IMG/VR virus record: IMGVR_UViG_2548876698_000017
DNA length: 34,976 nt
Source of the DNA: a virus
Lineage: Duplodnaviria > Heunggongvirae > Uroviricota > Caudoviricetes
Reading direction: 5' to 3' (one strand)
The notes below the pieces were generated by a model, which was not told the DNA's origin, searched no databases, and saw only the letters and a program-made list of their open reading frames with translations. Shown here in pieces: positions 1,940-18,854 of this stretch (position 1 is its first letter; the number at the start of each line of letters is the position of its first letter). A program made the translations under genes and the position numbers.

Positions 1940-2263
1940 GATGACCTCCTTTGAAGTTTTAGTTAGCAATCACCAGTTAGTAGCTGGTGATCGGGTGTCA
2001 ACTAGAGCCTTCAAAGACGCTCCGGGCATATTCCCCTTTTGGGTATTGTATTACGCCTCTCCACCCGACCTTTGTACGGATGTGACTATGCCAAATTGCA
2101 GGCATAAAAAAGCCGCAAAGCTATCGGGTGCGGGTGACCGCTTTGAAGTTCTAGTGCGGTCAGTATGCGATAGCTCTGGCGGCATTGTCAAATCATGCGC
2201 CACTGAGTCCAGCAATCTCTGCAATACCAATAGCGAGATAATCGCGATTCGTCAGGCGTGATT

Positions 2264-6162: not shown

Positions 6163-6747
6163 TTATTGTTTGTTTTTTTCGTTCTGGTTGATGACAAATT
6201 CAATGTAACTTTCGATCTTTGCTTTCTCGGTTTCGGGTAACAATGCGTAGCGCGAGCGATCATAGTTGATGGTCGCAGGGTCGTGCGGGTGAATCAGTAA
6301 TTCATAGCCGTGACGCCCGAATGCGGATGCAACATTCTCCAGGGTGGAAATGGAAACGCTGACCTCATTGTTTAACAGGCGGCTGATTGTCACTTGGGCG
6401 ACGCCGGATGCGCGGTGTAGTTTTCCCTGCGTTGAAAGGTCGCGGCTTTCGCTCATCCAGCGTTCCAGGTTGTGAGCCGCCAGCTGACCTATATCGCTCG
6501 GGCCGACAGGCTGAAAACCCTCCTGAGAAAGCGAGCGATCAATATCAAGCCAGTTACGGGGTTTATTGGCGGCAGCTTCAATTTTTCGTGCAACCTGGTC
6601 GCCGATAACCTTCTTGCCAAGAGCCCAGCGGTTTACCAGATTTGCCTGAGTTCCAAGTTTTTCTGCCATCCGCGTCTGAACACCATTGAATTCACGGTCG
6701 ATCAAGTCGTTGAGATTTTGCCTGCGGACGTCCTGGATACTTTTCAT
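6163..6747 (-). CDS. Putative prophage immunity repressor with two HTH regions and no LexA-like peptidase domain
   Basis: 194-aa ORF divergent from a Cro-like gene with three operator palindromes between them. HTH-like segments MAEKLGTQANLVNRWALGKK and ASGVAQVTISRLLNNEVSVSISTLENVASAF; no S24 peptidase motif seen. Confidence 0.6.
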   Translation of the reverse strand: MKSIQDVRRQNLNDLIDREFNGVQTRMAEKLGTQANLVNRWALGKKVIGDQVARKIEAAANKPRNWLDIDRSLSQEGFQPVGPSDIGQLAAHNLERWMSESRDLSTQGKLHRASGVAQVTISRLLNNEVSVSISTLENVASAFGRHGYELLIHPHDPATINYDRSRYALLPETEKAKIESYIEFVINQNEKNKQ

Positions 6748-6802
6748 TTTCTGGAAAATCGCCTCATATATGAATCAGTAGATGATTCAATTTAAAGCAA
6801 TA

Positions 6803-7498: not shown

Positions 7499-8314
7499 AT
7501 GAGCAGACATGCAACAGATTGGGCCTGGGAGACAGATCCAGGTAGCTCATCATTAAAGCTCATACTGCTCTCGATGGCTGACAGAGCCGATGAATATAAC
7601 CTCTGCTACCCCAGCATAGAACGCCTCGTTAAAGACACTTGCCTGAATAAAAAAACCGTGCAGGCCGGGCTTATATCGCTCATGAAAATGGGGCTTATTT
7701 CAGATACCGGAGAGAGAAAGGGAGCGACGAAAAGAGTGCGGGTTTTCTCTCTTAATATAACCAAAAACGGGAACATTAAAGGCAACCGGGAAGGGGGTAA
7801 TGAACCCGAAAACGGTAATGTTACCGAAAACGGGAATATACCCAAAAACGGGATGTTGAATGATCCCAAAAACGGGATGTTGAATGATCCCAAAAACGGG
7901 ATCCAGAACCAGTCATATAACCAGTCATTTAACCAAGAGAGGGAGAGCAGGACAAAAAGCGGGGATTCTGTGCCTCATGACCCCGGCGCAAACAACGCCG
8001 TGATGAATAACTTTGTTCCTCCTGGTGGGCCAGGGCAATTAGGCAAATTTGTCATGCATGAACAATGGCAACCATCAGATGACTTTCTTCGGAAAAGCTC
8101 ATTGCAGGGGATCTACCTGGACAGTCTGCCAACGGCACAGGAACTTGCAGAGTTCAGAATTTACTGGATGGCTGAGGGTAAGGCATACCATCAGGCGCAG
8201 TGGGAGCAGAAGCTGGCAAGGCGGCTGCAGATTAGCAGACAGAAGCAATCAACATTACCTGATAACAACGTTCCGCACTGGAACAGCCCTGAAGCATGGG
8301 AGGATTTCTTGTGA
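7499..8314 (+). CDS. Replication initiator (lambda O-like role) with N-terminal winged-helix domain; origin iterons inside the gene
   Basis: 271-aa ORF; N-terminal LKLILLSMADRADEYNLCYPSIERLVKDTCLNKKTVQAGLISLMKMGLIS resembles replication-initiator HTH domains. Central KNG-repeat peptide is encoded by six DNA iterons. Stop overlaps the next gene start. Confidence 0.7.
   Translation: MSRHATDWAWETDPGSSSLKLILLSMADRADEYNLCYPSIERLVKDTCLNKKTVQAGLISLMKMGLISDTGERKGATKRVRVFSLNITKNGNIKGNREGGNEPENGNVTENGNIPKNGMLNDPKNGMLNDPKNGIQNQSYNQSFNQERESRTKSGDSVPHDPGANNAVMNNFVPPGGPGQLGKFVMHEQWQPSDDFLRKSSLQGIYLDSLPTAQELAEFRIYWMAEGKAYHQAQWEQKLARRLQISRQKQSTLPDNNVPHWNSPEAWEDFL
7761..7910 (+). repeat. Six iterons, core CC(A/G)AAAACGG(G/T)A, inside the O-like gene (candidate replication origin)
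   Basis: Copies start at 7761, 7806, 7824, 7841, 7865, 7889; the last three are 24-bp units, two of them identical (CCCAAAAACGGGATGTTGAATGAT). Followed by the direct repeat CCAGTCAT(A/T)TAACC. Confidence 0.6.
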
Positions 8315-13723: not shown

Positions 13724-14317
13724 ATGCCTGCTGAACCTAAAACCTATAAACGCAAATCAACGCAATTTAAGCCACTAACAGCAATGCAGGAGGCTTATTG
13801 CCAGTCATACATCAAAACGCCTGAAAACCAGACTCAGGCAGCGATTAACGCAGGATTCTCCCCAAATACAGCGGCAGTTAAAGCCAGTGTCATGATGCGC
13901 GATGAACGCATTCAAAAACGGATTGCCGAGTTGATGGAGGAGCGCAACAAACGAATGCGCGTCAGTGCTGATTACGTTCTCATGCGCCTGGTGGAGATCG
14001 ACCAGATGGACGTGATCGATATCCTCAACGACGATGGGAGCCTTAAACCAATCCGTGAGTGGCCGAAAATCTGGCGCACTACGCTTAGTGGCTTTGATCT
14101 GTCATCGACCATCATGAACATGAACGAGGATTCGATAGAGACAATCCTCAAAAAAATTAAATGGCCTGACAAGGTGAAGAACCTCGAACTGATTGGTAAG
14201 CACGTCGACGTCAACGCATTCAAAGAACGCCTGGATGTTAATGTGAATGTGACAATTGCTGATCGCATAGCGGCAGCCAGGAAGAGACTGAAAGAACGTC
14301 AGGATGGCAATCAGTGA
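13724..14317 (+). CDS. Terminase small subunit (Terminase_2-like)
   Basis: Listed ORF 13643..14317 would include the intrinsic terminator hairpin; I prefer ATG at 13724 (MMPAEPKTYK...). KPLTAMQEAYCQSYIKTPENQTQAAINAGFSPNTAAVKASVMM matches the TerS N-terminal DNA-binding pattern. GTGA overlap with TerL start. Confidence 0.7.
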   Translation: MPAEPKTYKRKSTQFKPLTAMQEAYCQSYIKTPENQTQAAINAGFSPNTAAVKASVMMRDERIQKRIAELMEERNKRMRVSADYVLMRLVEIDQMDVIDILNDDGSLKPIREWPKIWRTTLSGFDLSSTIMNMNEDSIETILKKIKWPDKVKNLELIGKHVDVNAFKERLDVNVNVTIADRIAAARKRLKERQDGNQ

Positions 14318-15789
14318 CAGATACAGCGTTATCTCCTGAAGAGCAGTTAATCGAGGATATTGCAGGGTTCACTCACGATCCGCTTGGCTATGCCCTCTAT
14401 GCGTTCCCGTGGGGGGAAGAGGGTACTGAACTGGCACATGCCACCGGTCCACGTCAGTGGCAGGCCGATGCGTTCCGAGAGATACGTGATCACCTGCAGA
14501 ATCCAGAGACGCGATATCAGCCGCTTATGCTGTCACGTGCTTCTGGTCACGGTATTGGTAAATCCGCATTCATCTCAATGCTGATCAACTGGGGCATGTC
14601 CACTTGCGAGGATTGTAAGGTCGTGGTGACCGCCAACACCGACAACCAGCTACGAACGAAGACTTGGCCGGAAATTATCAAGTGGTCGAACCTTGCTATC
14701 ACGAAAGACTGGTTTACCTGTACCGCTACCGCGATGTACAGCAATGACCCTGGGCACGACAAGCGGTGGCGAGCTGACGCAATCCCCTGGTCTGAGCACA
14801 ACACTGAGGCATTCGCCGGACTACACAACGAGCGCAAACGCATCATCGTGGTATTCGACGAAGCATCCAACATTGCCGATCTGGTGTGGGAGGTAGCAGA
14901 GGGTGCGCTGACGGACGAAGACACTGAGATTATCTGGGTGGCATTCGGAAACCCTACACGTAACACCGGGCGTTTCCGCGAATGTTTCCGCAAATATAAA
15001 CACCGCTGGAAAACTGCGCAGATTGACAGCCGGACGGTGGAAGGCACTAACAAACAGCAGTTGCAGAAATGGGTTGATGACTACGGGGAAGACAGCGACT
15101 TCGTTAAAATCCGTGTGCGCGGCATATTCCCGGATGCATCTGAATTGCAGTTTATCCCTACCGGCCTTACTGACGAGGCAATGAAACGGGTGGTAACCGC
15201 TGCGCAGGTTGCACATGCTCCGGTGATAATCGGCGTTGACCCGGCATACTCCGGCGTTGATGACGCTGTGATATACCTGCGGCAGGGGCTGCACAGTAAG
15301 GTGCTATGGACTGGTAACAAGACCACCGACGATCTGATTATGGCGAAGCGTATCGCTGACTTTGAAGACCAGTATCAGGCTGACGCGGTGTTCATCGACT
15401 TCGGTTATGGAACCGGTTTGAAGTCAATCGGTGATGGCTGGGGACGTACATGGCAACTTGTTCCGTTCGGCGGTGCGTCCACTGACCCGCAGATGCTTAA
15501 CAAGCGTGGGGAGATGTTCAACTCATGTAAGACATGGCTGAGGCTGGGCGGCATGCTGGATGACCAGGAAACTGCAGACGACCTGTCGGCGGCAGAGTAC
15601 AAAGTTCGTGTGGACGGTAAAATCGTTATCGAACCGAAGGAAGATATCAAAGAGCGTCTTGGGCGTTCTCCTGGTAAAGGCGATGCGCTACTGCTGACGT
15701 TTGCTTTCCCGGTCTCGAAACGCATAAATATACCAGGACAGCAAAGCCAGCAGGGAAGGGCCATAACGGATTATGACCCTTATGCTTAA
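14314..15789 (+). CDS. Terminase large subunit
   Basis: 491-aa ORF; Walker A-like SRASGHGIGKS, Walker B-like IIVVFDEAS, C-terminal nuclease region; position immediately after TerS. Confidence 0.9.
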   Translation: MTDTALSPEEQLIEDIAGFTHDPLGYALYAFPWGEEGTELAHATGPRQWQADAFREIRDHLQNPETRYQPLMLSRASGHGIGKSAFISMLINWGMSTCEDCKVVVTANTDNQLRTKTWPEIIKWSNLAITKDWFTCTATAMYSNDPGHDKRWRADAIPWSEHNTEAFAGLHNERKRIIVVFDEASNIADLVWEVAEGALTDEDTEIIWVAFGNPTRNTGRFRECFRKYKHRWKTAQIDSRTVEGTNKQQLQKWVDDYGEDSDFVKIRVRGIFPDASELQFIPTGLTDEAMKRVVTAAQVAHAPVIIGVDPAYSGVDDAVIYLRQGLHSKVLWTGNKTTDDLIMAKRIADFEDQYQADAVFIDFGYGTGLKSIGDGWGRTWQLVPFGGASTDPQMLNKRGEMFNSCKTWLRLGGMLDDQETADDLSAAEYKVRVDGKIVIEPKEDIKERLGRSPGKGDALLLTFAFPVSKRINIPGQQSQQGRAITDYDPYA

Positions 15790-15832
15790 TCCGCTGGTGG
15801 GGATAATGTCGTTGATATCCTCTGGTGAGGAT

Positions 15833-15867
15833 AAAACAAAGCCAGCTCATAGGCTGGCTGTTTGTGA
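15833..15867. terminator. Bidirectional intrinsic terminator between convergent TerL and moron genes
   Basis: AAAACAAA-GCCAGC-TCATAG-GCTGGC-TGTTTGT: hairpin flanked by an A-run and a T-rich run. Confidence 0.6.
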
Positions 15868-15879
15868 CATGCCACGGTG

Positions 15880-16251
15880 TTATTGCTCGCTTAACTTCTG
15901 CTTCAGCAAGTAACCTTCGAGCATCCAGATTTTGTTTACAGCATTCTGCCGGGCAATCTTCCGACCAATTTCTGCATCAAAATTTTCCGGACTTGCACAG
16001 GAACTCTCTCCGGTGACGGTGAAGCCGTTGCGCAGCACCAGGACGCAGAACGTCAGCAGAGAAAGTGATTCGTGCGGCTGGTAGTTTACCTCTCCGCCAG
16101 TATGTTTCGCTTTTATGGCTTTGCCAAAGGCACCATCTTCTGCTGTGAAATATGCCTCCTGAGCAATAATGCCTTCGATATGGTCTGGCGTAACGCGCGG
16201 TGCCGTTTTGCCTTTCTCAACGATTTCTTTTTCGATTTGCTGGTCGTTCAT
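15880..16251 (-). CDS. Moron: Gp49-like (N4 gp49/Sf6 gp66-type) hypothetical protein (tentative)
   Basis: 123-aa ORF convergent with the terminase genes; AGGTGA RBS. Family assignment from recalled pattern (LLTFCVLVLRNGFTVTGESSCASPENFDAEIGRKIA) and is tentative. Confidence 0.45.
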   Translation of the reverse strand: MNDQQIEKEIVEKGKTAPRVTPDHIEGIIAQEAYFTAEDGAFGKAIKAKHTGGEVNYQPHESLSLLTFCVLVLRNGFTVTGESSCASPENFDAEIGRKIARQNAVNKIWMLEGYLLKQKLSEQ

Positions 16252-16261
16252 AATCTCACCT

Positions 16262-16285
16262 TAAAAAAATGCCCGGCGAACCGGG
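16262..16285 (-). terminator. Terminator-like hairpin downstream of the tRNA, immediately upstream of the moron RBS
   Basis: GCCCGG-CGAA-CCGGGC followed on the minus strand by a run of seven T. Confidence 0.5.
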
Positions 16286-16449
16286 CGAACTGGAAGCAAT
16301 GAGTTATGCCTTCCGTGGCTGTACGGGTTTACAGCATGAAGTCATCGCAATGGCGTCCTGCTGTAAAAAGGGCGGTGATAGTCCTTCAAGGGAAACTATC
16401 ACCGCCAAGCACCTGGAACTTCTGGCATCACGGTCCTTAGGCGTGATTC

Positions 16450-16526
16450 TGGCGTGGCATGCAGGATTCGAACCTGCGACCAACCGCTTAGAAGGCGGTT
16501 GCTCTGTCCAACTGAGCTAATGCCAC
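16450..16526 (-). tRNA. tRNA-Arg (anticodon UCU, reads AGA)
   Basis: Minus-strand 77 nt: GTGGCATTAGCTCAGTTGGACAGAGCAACCGCCTTCTAAGCGGTTGGTCGCAGGTTCGAATCCTGCATGCCACGCCA. Folds as a cloverleaf with 7-bp acceptor stem, GGTTCGAATCC T-arm, anticodon loop CTTCTAA and encoded 3' CCA. Confidence 0.9.
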
Positions 16527-16848
16527 AACGCTGAGAGCACTTAGCCTGTTAAGGCGCCACACTTTGTCGCGGCTCCATAAATGCTCTCATCGTTGTACCC
16601 TCGTCTCTTCCGAGGCGTCACACCGAATCGCCGGGATGGTGAATCCCCGTGCGCGGAATAAAACCGCTCGACTTGCACATTCCGGCTACCTGGTTCGTTT
16701 GCCCGAGCAAGGGAGGGTGCCCCTTAAACGTATCCAGACCGCTATCGGCGCATGTGCCATACGCCGTACTGCTCAAAATAAAAGCTCACTCCACCTGTTC
16801 AATTTAACGACAAGCCAGTCAGGTTAATAACCGGAATGAACCCTTTGA

Positions 16849-16863
16849 TTACCTGAAAGGTAA
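16849..16863. promoter_or_regulatory. Operator-like palindrome TTACCTGAAAGGTAA (perfect)
   Basis: Noncoding region between the tRNA and the 6.7-like/portal genes, about 90 bp upstream of the first structural ORF. Confidence 0.5.
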
Positions 16864-16953
16864 TAATTTGTGCGTTAAATGTCAACTATCTACGATAAAT
16901 AAATCATATGTGGTTAAATTGGTAATAATTTAATTGCGTACGGAGTCATTGAT

Positions 16954-17160
16954 ATGTGCATGGGTAGCTCACCATCAGTGCCTGCAACACCAGAAGTTCA
17001 GGCAGCACCACAGGAGCAGGATGCCGCCGTTGTTGATGCCCGCGACGAAGAAACACGTCGCCGTCGCGCTGCTGCTGGTCGTAGTTCTACGCTGCTTACC
17101 GGTTCTCAGGGCGACACATCAACCGCTAATACCAGCGGTAAAACGCTGCTTGGTCAGTAA
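16954..17160 (+). CDS. Small head-associated protein with N-terminal Met-Cys (T7 gp6.7-like position; tentative)
   Basis: 68-aa ORF (MCMGSSPSVPATPEV...), low complexity and Arg-rich; lies directly upstream of the portal gene and shares the initiation context GGAGTCATTGA-N-ATG with it. Confidence 0.45.
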   Translation: MCMGSSPSVPATPEVQAAPQEQDAAVVDARDEETRRRRAAAGRSSTLLTGSQGDTSTANTSGKTLLGQ

Positions 17161-17174
17161 CCGGAGTCATTGAA

Positions 17175-18854
17175 ATGGCGGAAACAACTAAAGAGCGATT
17201 GAACAAACAGTTCGCACAACTTGAAAGCGAGCGTCAGTCGTTCGAGCCGCACTGGCGCGAGTTGAGTGATTACATCAACCCGCGTGGTTCCCGCTTTCTG
17301 ACTTCTGAGGTCAACCGTAACGATCGACGCAATACACGCATTATTGATTCGACCGGGACTATGGCGGCGCGCACTCTCGCCAGCGGCATGATGTCAGGCA
17401 TCACAAGCCCCGCGCGTCCGTGGTTTCGCCTGGCTACGCCAGATCCTGAAATGATGGATTATGGCCCTGTTAAGTTGTGGCTTGAGGCGGTGCAGAACCG
17501 CATGAATGATATGTTCAATAAGTCGAATCTCTACCAGTCTCTTCCGCAGTTATACGGAAGCCTCGGCACATACAGCACTGGTGCAATGGCGGTGCTGGAG
17601 GATGACGAGGACATCATTCGCACAATGCCATTCCCGATAGGTAGTTACTACCTGGCTAACTCACCTCGTGGCAGTGTGGACACCTGTTTTCGCAAGTTCT
17701 CTATGACTGTTCGTCAGCTTGTTCAGGAGTTCGGGCTAAATAACGTCAGCGAATCCGTAAAAAGCATGTGGGAAATTGGCACCTACGAGAAGTGGATTGA
17801 GGTGATGCATTCGGTTTACCCGAACATTGACCGCGATACATCGAAGCTGGATAGCAAGAACAAGCCATTCAAATCGGTTTATTACGAGGTTGGCGGCGAT
17901 AACGACAAGTTGTTGCGTGAGTCCGGATTCGATGAGTTTCCAATTATGGCTCCGCGCTGGGAAGTTAACGGCGAAGATGTTTATGGATCATCATGCCCGG
18001 GTATGCTGGCGCTTGGACCTGTTAAGGCATTGCAGCTTCTTCAGAAGCGCAAGTCGCAGTTGATTGATAAAGCCACCAATCCGCCGATGGTTGCTCCGAC
18101 TTCCCTCAAGAATCAGCGCGCCTCCCTTCTTCCTGGCGACATCACGTATATCGATCAGATTACTGGTCAGGATGGTTTCAGGCCTGCTTATCTGGTTAAC
18201 CCCAGTACAGCAGATCTGGTAGCAGACATTCAGGACACTCGTCAAATCATTAACAGCGCCTACTTTGTCGATCTGTTCATGATGTTGCAGAACATCAATA
18301 CCCGCTCGATGCCTGTTGAAGCGGTGATCGAAATGAAAGAAGAAAAACTTCTGATGTTGGGGCCGGTTCTGGAGCGTCTGAACGACGAATGTCTTAATCC
18401 TCTCATTGACCGCGCTTTCTCGATGATGGTGCGTAAAAACATGCTGCCGCCACCGCCTGACGCGATGGAAGGCATGCCCCTGAAGGTCGAATACATTTCC
18501 GTCATGGCTCAGGCGCAGAAGTCTATCGGCCTGTCCAGTCTGGCGTCCACGGTTAACTTCATTGGTCAACTTGCGCAAGCGAAACCAGAAGCTCTCGACA
18601 AACTCAACGTTGATCAGGCGATCGATGCATTCGCTGATATGTCCGGAGTGTCTCCAACCGTCATTGTTCCGCAGGAACAGGTTGATCAGGCTCGCCAGCA
18701 ACGGGCACAGCAGCAACAGCAGCAACAAATGATGGCGATGGGGATGGCGGCGGCACAGGGTGCCAAGACGCTAAGCGAAGCTAAAACTTCGGATCCGAGT
18801 GTTTTGTCAGCTATGGCGAATGCAGTTAGTGGTCAGGGTGGGCAATCACAATGA
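17175..18854 (+). CDS. Portal (head-to-tail connector) protein, T7 gp8-like
   Basis: 559-aa ORF directly after the terminase/moron block; C-terminal Gln/Ala/Met-rich tail (QQRAQQQQQQQMMAMGMAAAQGA) resembles the T7-type connector C-terminus; followed by scaffold and capsid genes. Confidence 0.8.
   Translation: MAETTKERLNKQFAQLESERQSFEPHWRELSDYINPRGSRFLTSEVNRNDRRNTRIIDSTGTMAARTLASGMMSGITSPARPWFRLATPDPEMMDYGPVKLWLEAVQNRMNDMFNKSNLYQSLPQLYGSLGTYSTGAMAVLEDDEDIIRTMPFPIGSYYLANSPRGSVDTCFRKFSMTVRQLVQEFGLNNVSESVKSMWEIGTYEKWIEVMHSVYPNIDRDTSKLDSKNKPFKSVYYEVGGDNDKLLRESGFDEFPIMAPRWEVNGEDVYGSSCPGMLALGPVKALQLLQKRKSQLIDKATNPPMVAPTSLKNQRASLLPGDITYIDQITGQDGFRPAYLVNPSTADLVADIQDTRQIINSAYFVDLFMMLQNINTRSMPVEAVIEMKEEKLLMLGPVLERLNDECLNPLIDRAFSMMVRKNMLPPPPDAMEGMPLKVEYISVMAQAQKSIGLSSLASTVNFIGQLAQAKPEALDKLNVDQAIDAFADMSGVSPTVIVPQEQVDQARQQRAQQQQQQQMMAMGMAAAQGAKTLSEAKTSDPSVLSAMANAVSGQGGQSQ

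Follow-up and report, generated by a model that had tools for sequence, protein, structure and literature searches.

The closest described counterparts of the locus considered here are phage-borne tRNA genes, the morons of Juhala and Hendrix, the anti-defence clusters found at the starts of early operons, the put RNAs of phages HK022 and HK639, and the Acb4 protein of Bacillus phage SPO1. For the last of these, the Pfam family PF13876 has been defined as the Acb4 family, the members of which are tetrameric sponges for 3'3'-cGAMP and related signals of the cyclic oligonucleotide-based antiphage signalling system (CBASS), with 3'3'-cGAMP being bound by all eight of the eight homologs tested (Chang et al., bioRxiv 10.1101/2024.12.30.630793). 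The DNA analysed here, hereafter the window, is the whole 34,976-nt stretch of the IMG/VR record IMGVR_UViG_2548876698_000017, a phiV10/epsilon15-like (Uetakevirus) E. coli prophage. Between its terminase and portal genes, a preliminary description made from the sequence alone had noticed a minus-strand block, consisting of a Gp49-like open reading frame (ORF) and a tRNA-Arg(UCU), and had taken it to interrupt the late operon. The slot that the block occupies is conserved in position among Escherichia, Salmonella, Klebsiella and Enterobacter relatives, and the locus is probably one conserved leftward accessory transcription unit in a fixed slot, not an accidental break in the late operon. What had been observed was confirmed, and its interpretation was supported in part, while a conserved RNA lying just 5' of the tRNA had been missed. 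This structured leader RNA is the most interesting and least ordinary part of the region.

The reading that we favour, and consider moderately probable, is that the block is a single leftward unit composed of an operator-overlapped promoter, a leader, an RNA core with its hairpin P5, the tRNA, a terminator (T1), a spacer, a second terminator (T2), an Acb4-family cassette and a third terminator (T3), and that it is expressed early, with read-through. Its features, in window coordinates, are the following:

16857..16885, minus strand: candidate leftward sigma-70 promoter, with the -35 TTGACA (16885-16880), a 17-nt spacer and the -10 TACCTT (16862-16857); read from the sequence
16848..16864, strandless: perfect 17-bp palindrome ATTACCTGAAAGGTAAT, a candidate prophage-repressor operator that overlaps the leftward -10; called from its enrichment and the epsilon15 annotation
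16770..16850, minus strand: 5' leader of about 80 nt, from the predicted transcription start to the RNA core; placed from the promoter position and partly conserved in relatives
16590..16769, minus strand: conserved structured RNA core of about 180 nt, with helices P1-P4 and a pseudoknot (P3 loop CACC with downstream GGUG); from alignment A3
16527..16595, minus strand: P5, a long hairpin (CAACGAUGAGAGCA ... UGCUCUCAGCGUUG) with a variable tip, the last pair of which uses G1 of the tRNA; from covariation and the minimum-free-energy fold
16450..16526, minus strand: tRNA-Arg(UCU), argU-like, CCA encoded; from ARAGORN, Rfam, RefSeq and several phage records
16363..16406, minus strand: T1, a 14-bp hairpin (stem 16406..16371) followed by CUUUUUAC, 3' of the tRNA; from the terminator scan
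16287..16362, minus strand: conserved T1-T2 spacer of 76 nt; from alignments A2 and A5
16263..16286, minus strand: T2, GCCCGG-UUCG-CCGGGC followed by AUUUUUUU, a canonical intrinsic terminator just 5' of the ORF; from the terminator scan
16255..16262, minus strand: Shine-Dalgarno sequence AAGGTGAG of the ORF; read from the sequence
15880..16251, minus strand: exchangeable ORF cassette, 123 aa, PF13876 "Gp49 family"; from Pfam, the PDB and the RefSeq name
15840..15859, minus strand: T3, AGCCAGC-loop-GCTGGCT followed by UUGUUUUAUC, after the ORF cassette and 50 nt past the stop codon of the terminase large subunit gene (terL); from the terminator scan

The approximately 240 bp located 5' of the tRNA on the minus strand are conserved well beyond the Uetakeviruses. 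Unannotated DNA immediately downstream of cI in mEp460, cdtI, 2H10, Ayreon and Shiga toxin (Stx) phages of the Stx2c and Stx2a types matches the region at about 82% identity, and the interval between tRNA-Ile and ban in P1, P7, D6, SJ46 and RCS47 does so at about 80%. With a 17-nt seed, at least 120 stretches were recovered from IMG/VR, and a two-part pattern led to nine prophage loci in Kosakonia, Citrobacter, Kluyvera, Enterobacter and Escherichia genomes. When 27 diverse copies were aligned (A3), 97.1% of the cells were paired and changes on both sides were seen in 11 of the 27 pairs; none of 500 shuffles reached this level of pairing, and slid controls were 29-50% paired. The pseudoknot pair changes jointly to AACC:GGUU in the lambdoid type, the pairing of P5 is kept among relatives (for example AGAGCA/UGCUCU versus AGCGCA/UGCGCU), and the frequent G-U pairs in P1-P3 are compatible with the minus strand only. 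The fold of the leader RNA is well supported by this covariation. The covariance model R1 scored 149.5 bits at the window element (E 1.4e-43), its sole significant match in the window, where no second copy of the RNA was found by the same search. It also scored 136-170 bits in 15 further independent loci, which belong to Kosakonia, Citrobacter, Kluyvera, Enterobacter and Escherichia genomes, more viral contigs, an Stx2a phage and P7. Rfam 15, searched both at the gathering thresholds and at E<=5, gave no match in 16527-16950 nor at the element in 17 related loci, and the literature, searched for the invariant 17-mer in both DNA and RNA spelling, yielded no relevant paper.

Two other roles for this sequence were considered and rejected. 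That the leader codes for protein, in the plus-strand ORF 16564-16827 or in PhiV10p04, which overlies the tRNA, is excluded since the indels, of 1, 2 and 4 nt, are not multiples of three; the region also contains variable hairpins and gave no Pfam match. An rrn/nut-like boxA (UGCUCU) in the 3' strand of P5 was discarded because it co-varies with its partner (UGCGCU with AGCGCA) and is thus constrained by the helix. In epsilon15 itself (L006 1446-1537) only P1 and part of P2 are kept, scoring 41 bits; the deletion lies between two TTCCCTTGATGCT repeats, found in P2 and in the T1 loop, and the RNA core, the tRNA and half of T1 are gone.

In other phages the RNA is found in comparable company. 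In mEp460 and the Stx2c/Stx2a phages, the cI terminator is followed by operator-like palindromes and a promoter-like sequence, and the RNA lies approximately 60 nt downstream of these. A position just after a putative PL-type promoter and before terminators was seen in the mEp460, Stx2c and Stx2a_1447 loci, and the layout in the window is the same. The lambdoid order 3' of the RNA is a variable unit closed by GUGG...CCAC, a T1-like hairpin, a second hairpin and the early-left genes. In P1/P7, tRNA-Ile(CAU) is located 17 nt upstream of the RNA, the P7 copy of which is part of the C1-controlled Op(ban) operon and has tRNA-Ile on one side and ban on the other. Wherever the upstream region was readable, the RNA belonged to a repressor-operator operon (annotated in P7, putative in the lambdoids) and adjoined a tRNA or decayed tRNA-like units, and in all contexts examined in detail (Uetakevirus, lambdoid, P1/P7) it was co-oriented with the downstream ORFs. 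A strong terminator-like hairpin was found no more than 800 nt downstream in 89 of 126 unique loci. The RNA-bearing lambdoid loci carry no annotated N gene, and the first downstream ORF in mEp460 is not N-like. The lambdoid cargo opens with a mini-ORF (MVNAQADARK...) that is rich in arginine and N-like; it was also assessed and rejected, the frames not being conserved and stops occurring within a few codons in relatives.

Calls for tRNA and transfer-messenger RNA genes in the lambdoid, Tyrion and PAT1 cargos returned only a single tRNA(CAT) with a 46-nt insert, in the IMG/VR contig L098. The cargos of this contig and of L104, L016 and L077 can consist of tandem modules of a P5 hairpin and a tRNA-like unit, of the tRNA(CAT) with the 46-nt insert, or of T-arm-like GGTTCGATTCC fragments. 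They resemble decayed or remodelled tRNA arrays, each unit ending in CCACAAC, which is also the start of the next P5. Elsewhere in two RNA-bearing lambdoids, mEp460 (L004 4847-5035) and an Stx2c phage (L005 4777-4965), isrK and C4 antisense RNA were found upstream of a Rha-type antirepressor gene, a pairing that points to a P1/P7-like RNA-controlled antirepressor module.

In the window, the TTGACA/TACCTT pair is the only candidate minus-strand promoter of the unit, and six relatives representing four host genera show no variation in its -35 or in the core of its -10 (TACC). The palindrome that overlaps it, ATTACC-N5-GGTAAT, occurs at 11 sites in the window when up to two mismatches are allowed (6028, 6090, 6802, 7187, 9133, 9195, 13688, 13706, 16848, 26122 and 33789), compared with 1.1 expected, a 10-fold excess, and none of 100 shuffles reached 11. 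The site at 6802 is in the immunity region, between a helix-turn-helix repressor gene (6163-6747, minus strand) and a divergent ORF, and the epsilon15 record labels its counterpart of the 16848 site as repressor-binding, with an integration host factor site adjoining. Since the -10 lies inside a perfect copy of the candidate operator, repression in the lysogen and early lytic expression are predicted. Judged from these sequence signals, the unit is probably early and repressed in the lysogen, rather than a lysogen-expressed moron; such expression fits an anti-defence gene and not a moron of lysogenic conversion. The palindrome sites include tandem copies just inside the annotated start of terS and one near the right end, and this scatter suggests a P1-C1-like repressor with many operators.

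The terminator scan identified five sites in 1.8 kb, compared with 1.9 +/- 1.2 in shuffled sequence, and three strong minus-strand terminator-like hairpins were located at 16406..16371, 16286..16271 and 15859..15840. The counterpart of T1 in lambdoid phages differs from it by compensatory changes (GGCGGUGAUAG/CUAUCACCGCC versus GGCGGUACCAG/CUGGUACCGC). T2 is retained in Klebsiella, Enterobacter and Salmonella relatives, with a compensatory GCCCAC/GUGGGC in PAT1 and epsilon15, and is annotated as a terminator in the epsilon15 record. The preliminary description had correctly seen a terminator after the tRNA, but counted one hairpin where two precede the ORF, and placed the end of the T-run about 10 bp before the ribosome-binding site; the U-run of T2 (16269-16263) in fact directly touches the Shine-Dalgarno sequence and ends 11 nt before the ATG. 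The bidirectional terminator proposed at 15833-15867 exists as a hairpin and holds for the minus strand. On the plus strand the tail of T3, GTTTGTGA, falls below the T-run criterion of the scan, which suggests weak plus-strand action, if any; T3 is annotated as a plus-strand terminator in the phiV10 record, and in TL-2011b a different hairpin is found at its position. A consensus promoter scan of 16252-16450 found no sigma-70-like site between the tRNA and the ORF, the spacer included. With no such site after the tRNA, and with T1 and T2 in the path, the sponge gene would be transcribed only by those polymerases that pass both terminators.

The ORF matched PF13876 (Phage_gp49_66) with 117.2 bits against a cutoff of 27 (E 4.6e-34), over profile positions 1-82 of 82, and by sequence its membership in the Acb4 family is firm. 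Its top PDB sequence match was 9e4w, anti-CBASS 4 (Acb4), with an E value of 0.0023 and an alignment spanning the ligand-binding beta3-alpha4 region. Of the six 3'3'-cGAMP-contacting residues of SPO1 Acb4 that could be mapped by aligning 9e4w with phmmer, the window protein retains three (F48, F62 and I66) and has substitutions at the other three. The protein is predicted to be a cyclic-dinucleotide sponge against CBASS. A single-sequence AlphaFold2 model of the ORF was unusable (predicted local distance difference test score 41).

With T2 and T3 as its limits, the ORF forms a mobile accessory cassette. In Klebsiella phage ST512-KPC3phi13.3 a Tad2-like protein (PF11195, E 4e-26) is encoded in the same slot, which is filled by unrelated small ORFs in SPN9TCW, PAT1, Tyrion, TL-2011b and EC.W1-9 and is empty in the E. 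coli relative phiv142-3, where both terminators are kept and T2 is followed almost directly by T3. Most of the alternative cargos had no match to a known family; as far as family matches go, the slot is repeatedly occupied by anti-defence genes (Acb4-family and Tad2-like). The term moron applied to the ORF is thus apt for an exchangeable accessory cassette with a downstream terminator, but not as regards a promoter of its own, which the consensus scan of 16252-16450 did not find. The ORF by itself (window 15887-16254, near-exact ORF boundaries) is 98% identical to a segment of the Stx2a-converting phage Stx2_112991, which indicates cassette exchange between podoviral and lambdoid prophages. 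In Enterobacter phage Tyrion, an int-alpA RNA (RF02996, 44 bits) was found between two accessory ORFs of the same terminase-portal slot (L009 450-514).

The tRNA gene was the sole tRNA called in the window by ARAGORN, as tRNA-Arg with the anticodon tct at position 35. Scoring with a covariance model, failure of which had been named as a refutation, gave a full-length match to the Rfam tRNA model (RF00005) of 73.3 bits against a gathering threshold of 29 (E 2e-14). The 1.5 kb around the locus (15700-17200) is 100% identical in bovine and human E. coli chromosomes, several of which are named O26 or carry strain names of the Shiga-toxigenic E. coli type, and RefSeq gives the gene order in these identical-locus genomes as terminase, Gp49 family protein, tRNA-Arg, hypothetical protein and portal protein. 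ARAGORN, the PF13876 match and the RefSeq order thus all bear out the Gp49-like ORF and the tRNA-Arg(UCU) on the minus strand between terminase and portal, and the pair is real, ordinary and already in public annotation ("Gp49 family protein", "tRNA-Arg"). The tRNA agrees fully with argU of E. coli K-12 in its D-stem, T-arm, CCA end and anticodon loop (CUUCUAA). Most of the differences between the two fall in the stems of the acceptor and the anticodon, each substitution there being matched on the opposite strand, and further single ones occur in the D-loop and the variable region. Such retention of the loops with compensated changes in the stems is the pattern expected of a functional argU paralog. 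The same tRNA gene was found in Klebsiella and Salmonella relatives, and a tRNA-Arg is annotated in O157 typing phages 9/10, phiv142-3, SPN9TCW and SPC32H. In the records of phiV10, TL-2011b and EC.W1-9 it is unannotated and an opposite-strand hypothetical protein is given instead, which is likely a mis-annotation (L001 2672-2923, L145 939-1190 and L147 1507-1758, respectively, corresponding to the window ORF 16269-16520 on the plus strand).

Codon usage was counted over 47 non-overlapping window ORFs and compared with three flanking host genes (1343 codons). AGA was used at 6.0 per 1000 codons in the window ORFs (65 codons, 9.7% of the Arg codons) and AGG at 4.8 per 1000, whereas no AGA occurred in the 1343 host codons, so that the proposed comparison of phage and host usage came out in favour of enrichment. 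In E. coli, AGA averages about 2 per 1000 codons, and its use in the window is approximately three times that figure. The AGA codons are concentrated in early genes and in the large tail/ejection genes. The Acb4-family ORF contains neither AGA nor AGG, which means that the tRNA does not serve its neighbour. Codon supplementation by the phage tRNA is plausible but modest. The earlier suggestion that an AGA tRNA could aid phage or adjacent virulence genes is supported by AGA enrichment on the phage side only, no virulence gene being evident in the window and repression in the lysogen being predicted.

Direct results of the analysis are the identification of the tRNA and the ORF family, the hairpins with their conservation, the boundaries of the cassette, the covariation-supported fold and the over-represented palindrome, and a mechanism that would connect them can be outlined. 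The unit would be silent in the lysogen and fire early after induction or infection. Most transcripts would stop at T1 or T2, giving the tRNA and the leader RNA, and the tRNA, matured by RNase P and 3' trimming, would add to the host's scarce argU in decoding the 65 AGA codons found in the window ORFs. A fraction of the polymerases would pass both terminators, allowing the sponge to be made and CBASS signalling to be blunted. Most speculatively, the leader RNA may promote this read-through of T1/T2 in cis, as the HK022 put RNA does. The genes downstream of the RNA differ wholly by context (ban, recombination genes, Acb4, Tad2-like), which makes a gene-specific riboswitch unlikely and a general function in transcription elongation the most economical guess. 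By analogy, our leading guess is that the leader RNA may act in cis, as a processive antiterminator or an anti-Rho element serving a long leader that bears a tRNA and is not translated. More broadly, and only tentatively, we suggest that with this RNA a class of phage regulatory RNAs not described so far may have its first example (epsilon15-like, lambdoid, P1/P7), most attractively a put-analogous but non-homologous antiterminator or anti-Rho element. Such an element would carry the polymerase through long, untranslated arrays of tRNA or tRNA-like units and intrinsic terminators into early accessory or anti-defence genes.

Several points weigh against this picture, whether in its regulation, its RNA or its gene products. 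The candidate leftward promoter has a weak -10 (3/6 matches), is a sequence-level call and was not called by a simple scan, and the operator could instead, or also, control the rightward structural operon. In P1-type loci no terminator-like hairpin was found within 800 nt downstream of the RNA core. Epsilon15 and VB_ST_E15 have deleted the RNA core and the tRNA and kept T2 and an intact Acb4-family ORF, so the core is not strictly required for the ORF. HK022 putL/putR and HK639 putL showed no significant similarity to the RNA, either with the R1 covariance model with filters off or with blastn-short. Put action is Nus-independent. The mEp phages were isolated as Nus-dependent (PMC11893012). 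On the protein side, three of the six mapped SPO1 Acb4 contacts are changed in the window protein (E49 to T, Y57 to A and T70 to I). Finally, AGA is absent from the terL, portal, scaffold and capsid genes, and the need for the tRNA is therefore modest.

The main competing explanation takes the leader as a stable, processed RNA that works in trans; it might act on RNA polymerase, for instance, or serve as decoy or inhibitor of a host defence. The ORF would then be expressed only through ordinary terminator leakage. The 3' end of this RNA would be cut by RNase P at G1 of the tRNA, or would be the transcript end at T1. The tRNA or tRNA-like unit that always stands beside the RNA would provide defined processing sites, and the strong terminator usually found downstream, the complex, pseudoknotted fold and the anti-defence nature of the neighbouring ORFs would all suit such a product. 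It is less easily reconciled with the co-orientation of the RNA and the downstream ORFs in every context examined in detail, or with P1, where the RNA lies within the ban mRNA leader and has no terminator of its own, and we know of no target or partner for it; trans action is possible, but we regard it as doubtful. The other way of separating the RNA from the ORF would be an unrecognised promoter in the T1-T2 spacer, with the T2 hairpin acting as a stabiliser of the 5' untranslated region and forming no barrier. This would explain why the 76-nt spacer is conserved in relatives whichever ORF follows, and why epsilon15 keeps the spacer, T2 and the ORF after loss of the RNA core. However, the scan revealed no sigma-70-like site in the spacer, and T2, a UUCG-capped GC stem with seven U, is a textbook terminator rather than a 5' hairpin, which renders a spacer promoter quite unlikely.

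The two remaining explanations place the weight on the tRNA. Stx phages carry argO/argN/ileZ tRNAs near stx, and the block could similarly be a prophage-expressed moron with a cargo tRNA that boosts AGA decoding for phage or nearby virulence genes in the lysogen, as the presence/absence behaviour of the ORF cassette, its own terminator and the enrichment of AGA and AGG in the window ORFs would allow. We consider this very unlikely, since the -10 of the only plausible promoter is covered by a perfect operator copy, no promoter adjoins the ORF and a strong terminator abuts its ribosome-binding site. Moreover, the ORF belongs to a family of anti-defence sponges used in lytic growth and is free of AGA and AGG, and no virulence gene is evident in the window. 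Alternatively, the tRNA could be mainly an anti-defence device, a substitute tRNA-Arg(UCU) that, with its altered acceptor and anticodon stems, evades a host nuclease aimed at tRNAs; phage tRNAs have been reported to rescue the tRNA cleavage caused by PARIS and Retron-Eco7. That the tRNA shares its unit with Acb4 or Tad2-like genes, and that its stems differ from argU by compensatory changes while the function-defining loops are kept, would agree with this. The anticodon loop, which is the usual target of such nucleases, is nevertheless identical to that of argU, no Arg(UCU)-specific defence nuclease was identified in the analysis, and AGA enrichment offers a simpler rationale, making an anti-nuclease role unlikely. 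The early leftward unit with read-through thus remains the reading we prefer.

Beyond the unit, the following features define its surroundings:

14314..15789, plus strand: terminase large subunit gene (terL), the left flank; from the phiV10 and RefSeq annotation
16954..17160, plus strand: small ORF, a homolog of epsilon15 gp3 and the first of the rightward portal/structural block; from the ORF list, the phiV10 and epsilon15 annotation and PHROG 831
1-1251: integrase ORF (PF00589), at the far left end of the window, 15 kb from the tRNA

The 1.5 kb of 15700-17200 shows 95-96% identity to phiV10 and to O157 typing phages 9 and 10. In an identical-locus genome the prophage is adjoined by guaA, a neighbour that is not a tRNA, and neither in the window nor in that genome is the tRNA adjacent to the integrase or to a prophage end. 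The integrase position and the guaA junction agree with the earlier view of the tRNA as cargo and not as the attachment site. Two further elements were observed in the window, namely a match to the Rfam family sRNA-Xcc1 (RF02221) near the integrase end (1981-2070, minus strand; 62.9 bits against a gathering threshold of 53) and four 24-nt iteron-like direct repeats (GAATxxxCCCAAAAACGGGAT) at 7753-7905, within the ORF 7499-8314, which are probably a replication origin.

The tRNA and moron as first stated are ordinary. Reinterpreted, they are parts of an early, probably repressor-controlled accessory unit with a predicted Acb4-family anti-CBASS sponge, and the alternation of this sponge with Tad2-like genes marks a compact anti-defence slot in a prophage that is found in Shiga-toxigenic E. 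coli lineages, e.g. O26 and O103. What is new is a structured RNA with no Rfam match that is common to three unrelated temperate-phage architectures and lies, where this is readable, in apparently repressor-controlled early operons. If the RNA governs read-through, this would explain the expression of genes located behind strong terminators, and the RNA would then be a candidate for the early antitermination function in those lambdoid phages from which both N and put are missing. The alternative, in which the leader is a trans-acting anti-defence RNA, would also be new.

Compared with the systems named at the outset, the tRNA is of a familiar kind, sharing a canonical cloverleaf, a rare codon and a cargo position in a temperate-phage operon with the tRNA genes of O157 typing phages 9/10, phiv142-3, SPN9TCW and SPC32H, the tRNA-Asn/Thr/Ile of P1/P7 and the ileZ-argN-argO of Stx phages. 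It differs from these in being set between a conserved structured RNA and two terminators, and sister phages hold non-tRNA or decayed tRNA-like units at its place. Like the morons of Juhala and Hendrix, the ORF is a single accessory gene with presence/absence and replacement polymorphism and a downstream terminator, located between conserved modules; unlike them, it shows no promoter of its own in the consensus scan and is preceded by two terminators within a conserved multi-part unit, for which repression in the lysogen is probable. The window protein shares PF13876 and F48, F62 and I66 with SPO1 Acb4, but has an N-terminal extension of approximately 60 aa and substitutions at E49, Y57 and T70. 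The slot resembles the anti-defence clusters at early-operon starts (Tad2, Acb families) in alternating between Acb4-family and Tad2-like genes, but holds one ORF at a time. The proposed role of the leader RNA would be analogous to that of the rrn leader. Homology to the put RNAs was rejected, as blastn-short, the annotated HK639 putL and R1 gave no significant match and revealed only a short common string, ACGGCG...CAUGCGUCG-NN-AGCG, at the base of the first helix. The put RNAs of HK022 (putL/putR) and HK639 (putL-like) are about 70 nt long with two stems, whereas the window-type RNA is about 180 nt long with four helices and a pseudoknot, is present in one copy per genome and also occurs in P1 and podoviruses. 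The likeness between them is positional: in both cases a structured RNA lies shortly after a putative repressor-controlled early promoter and before intrinsic terminators, in lambdoid phages without an annotated N gene.

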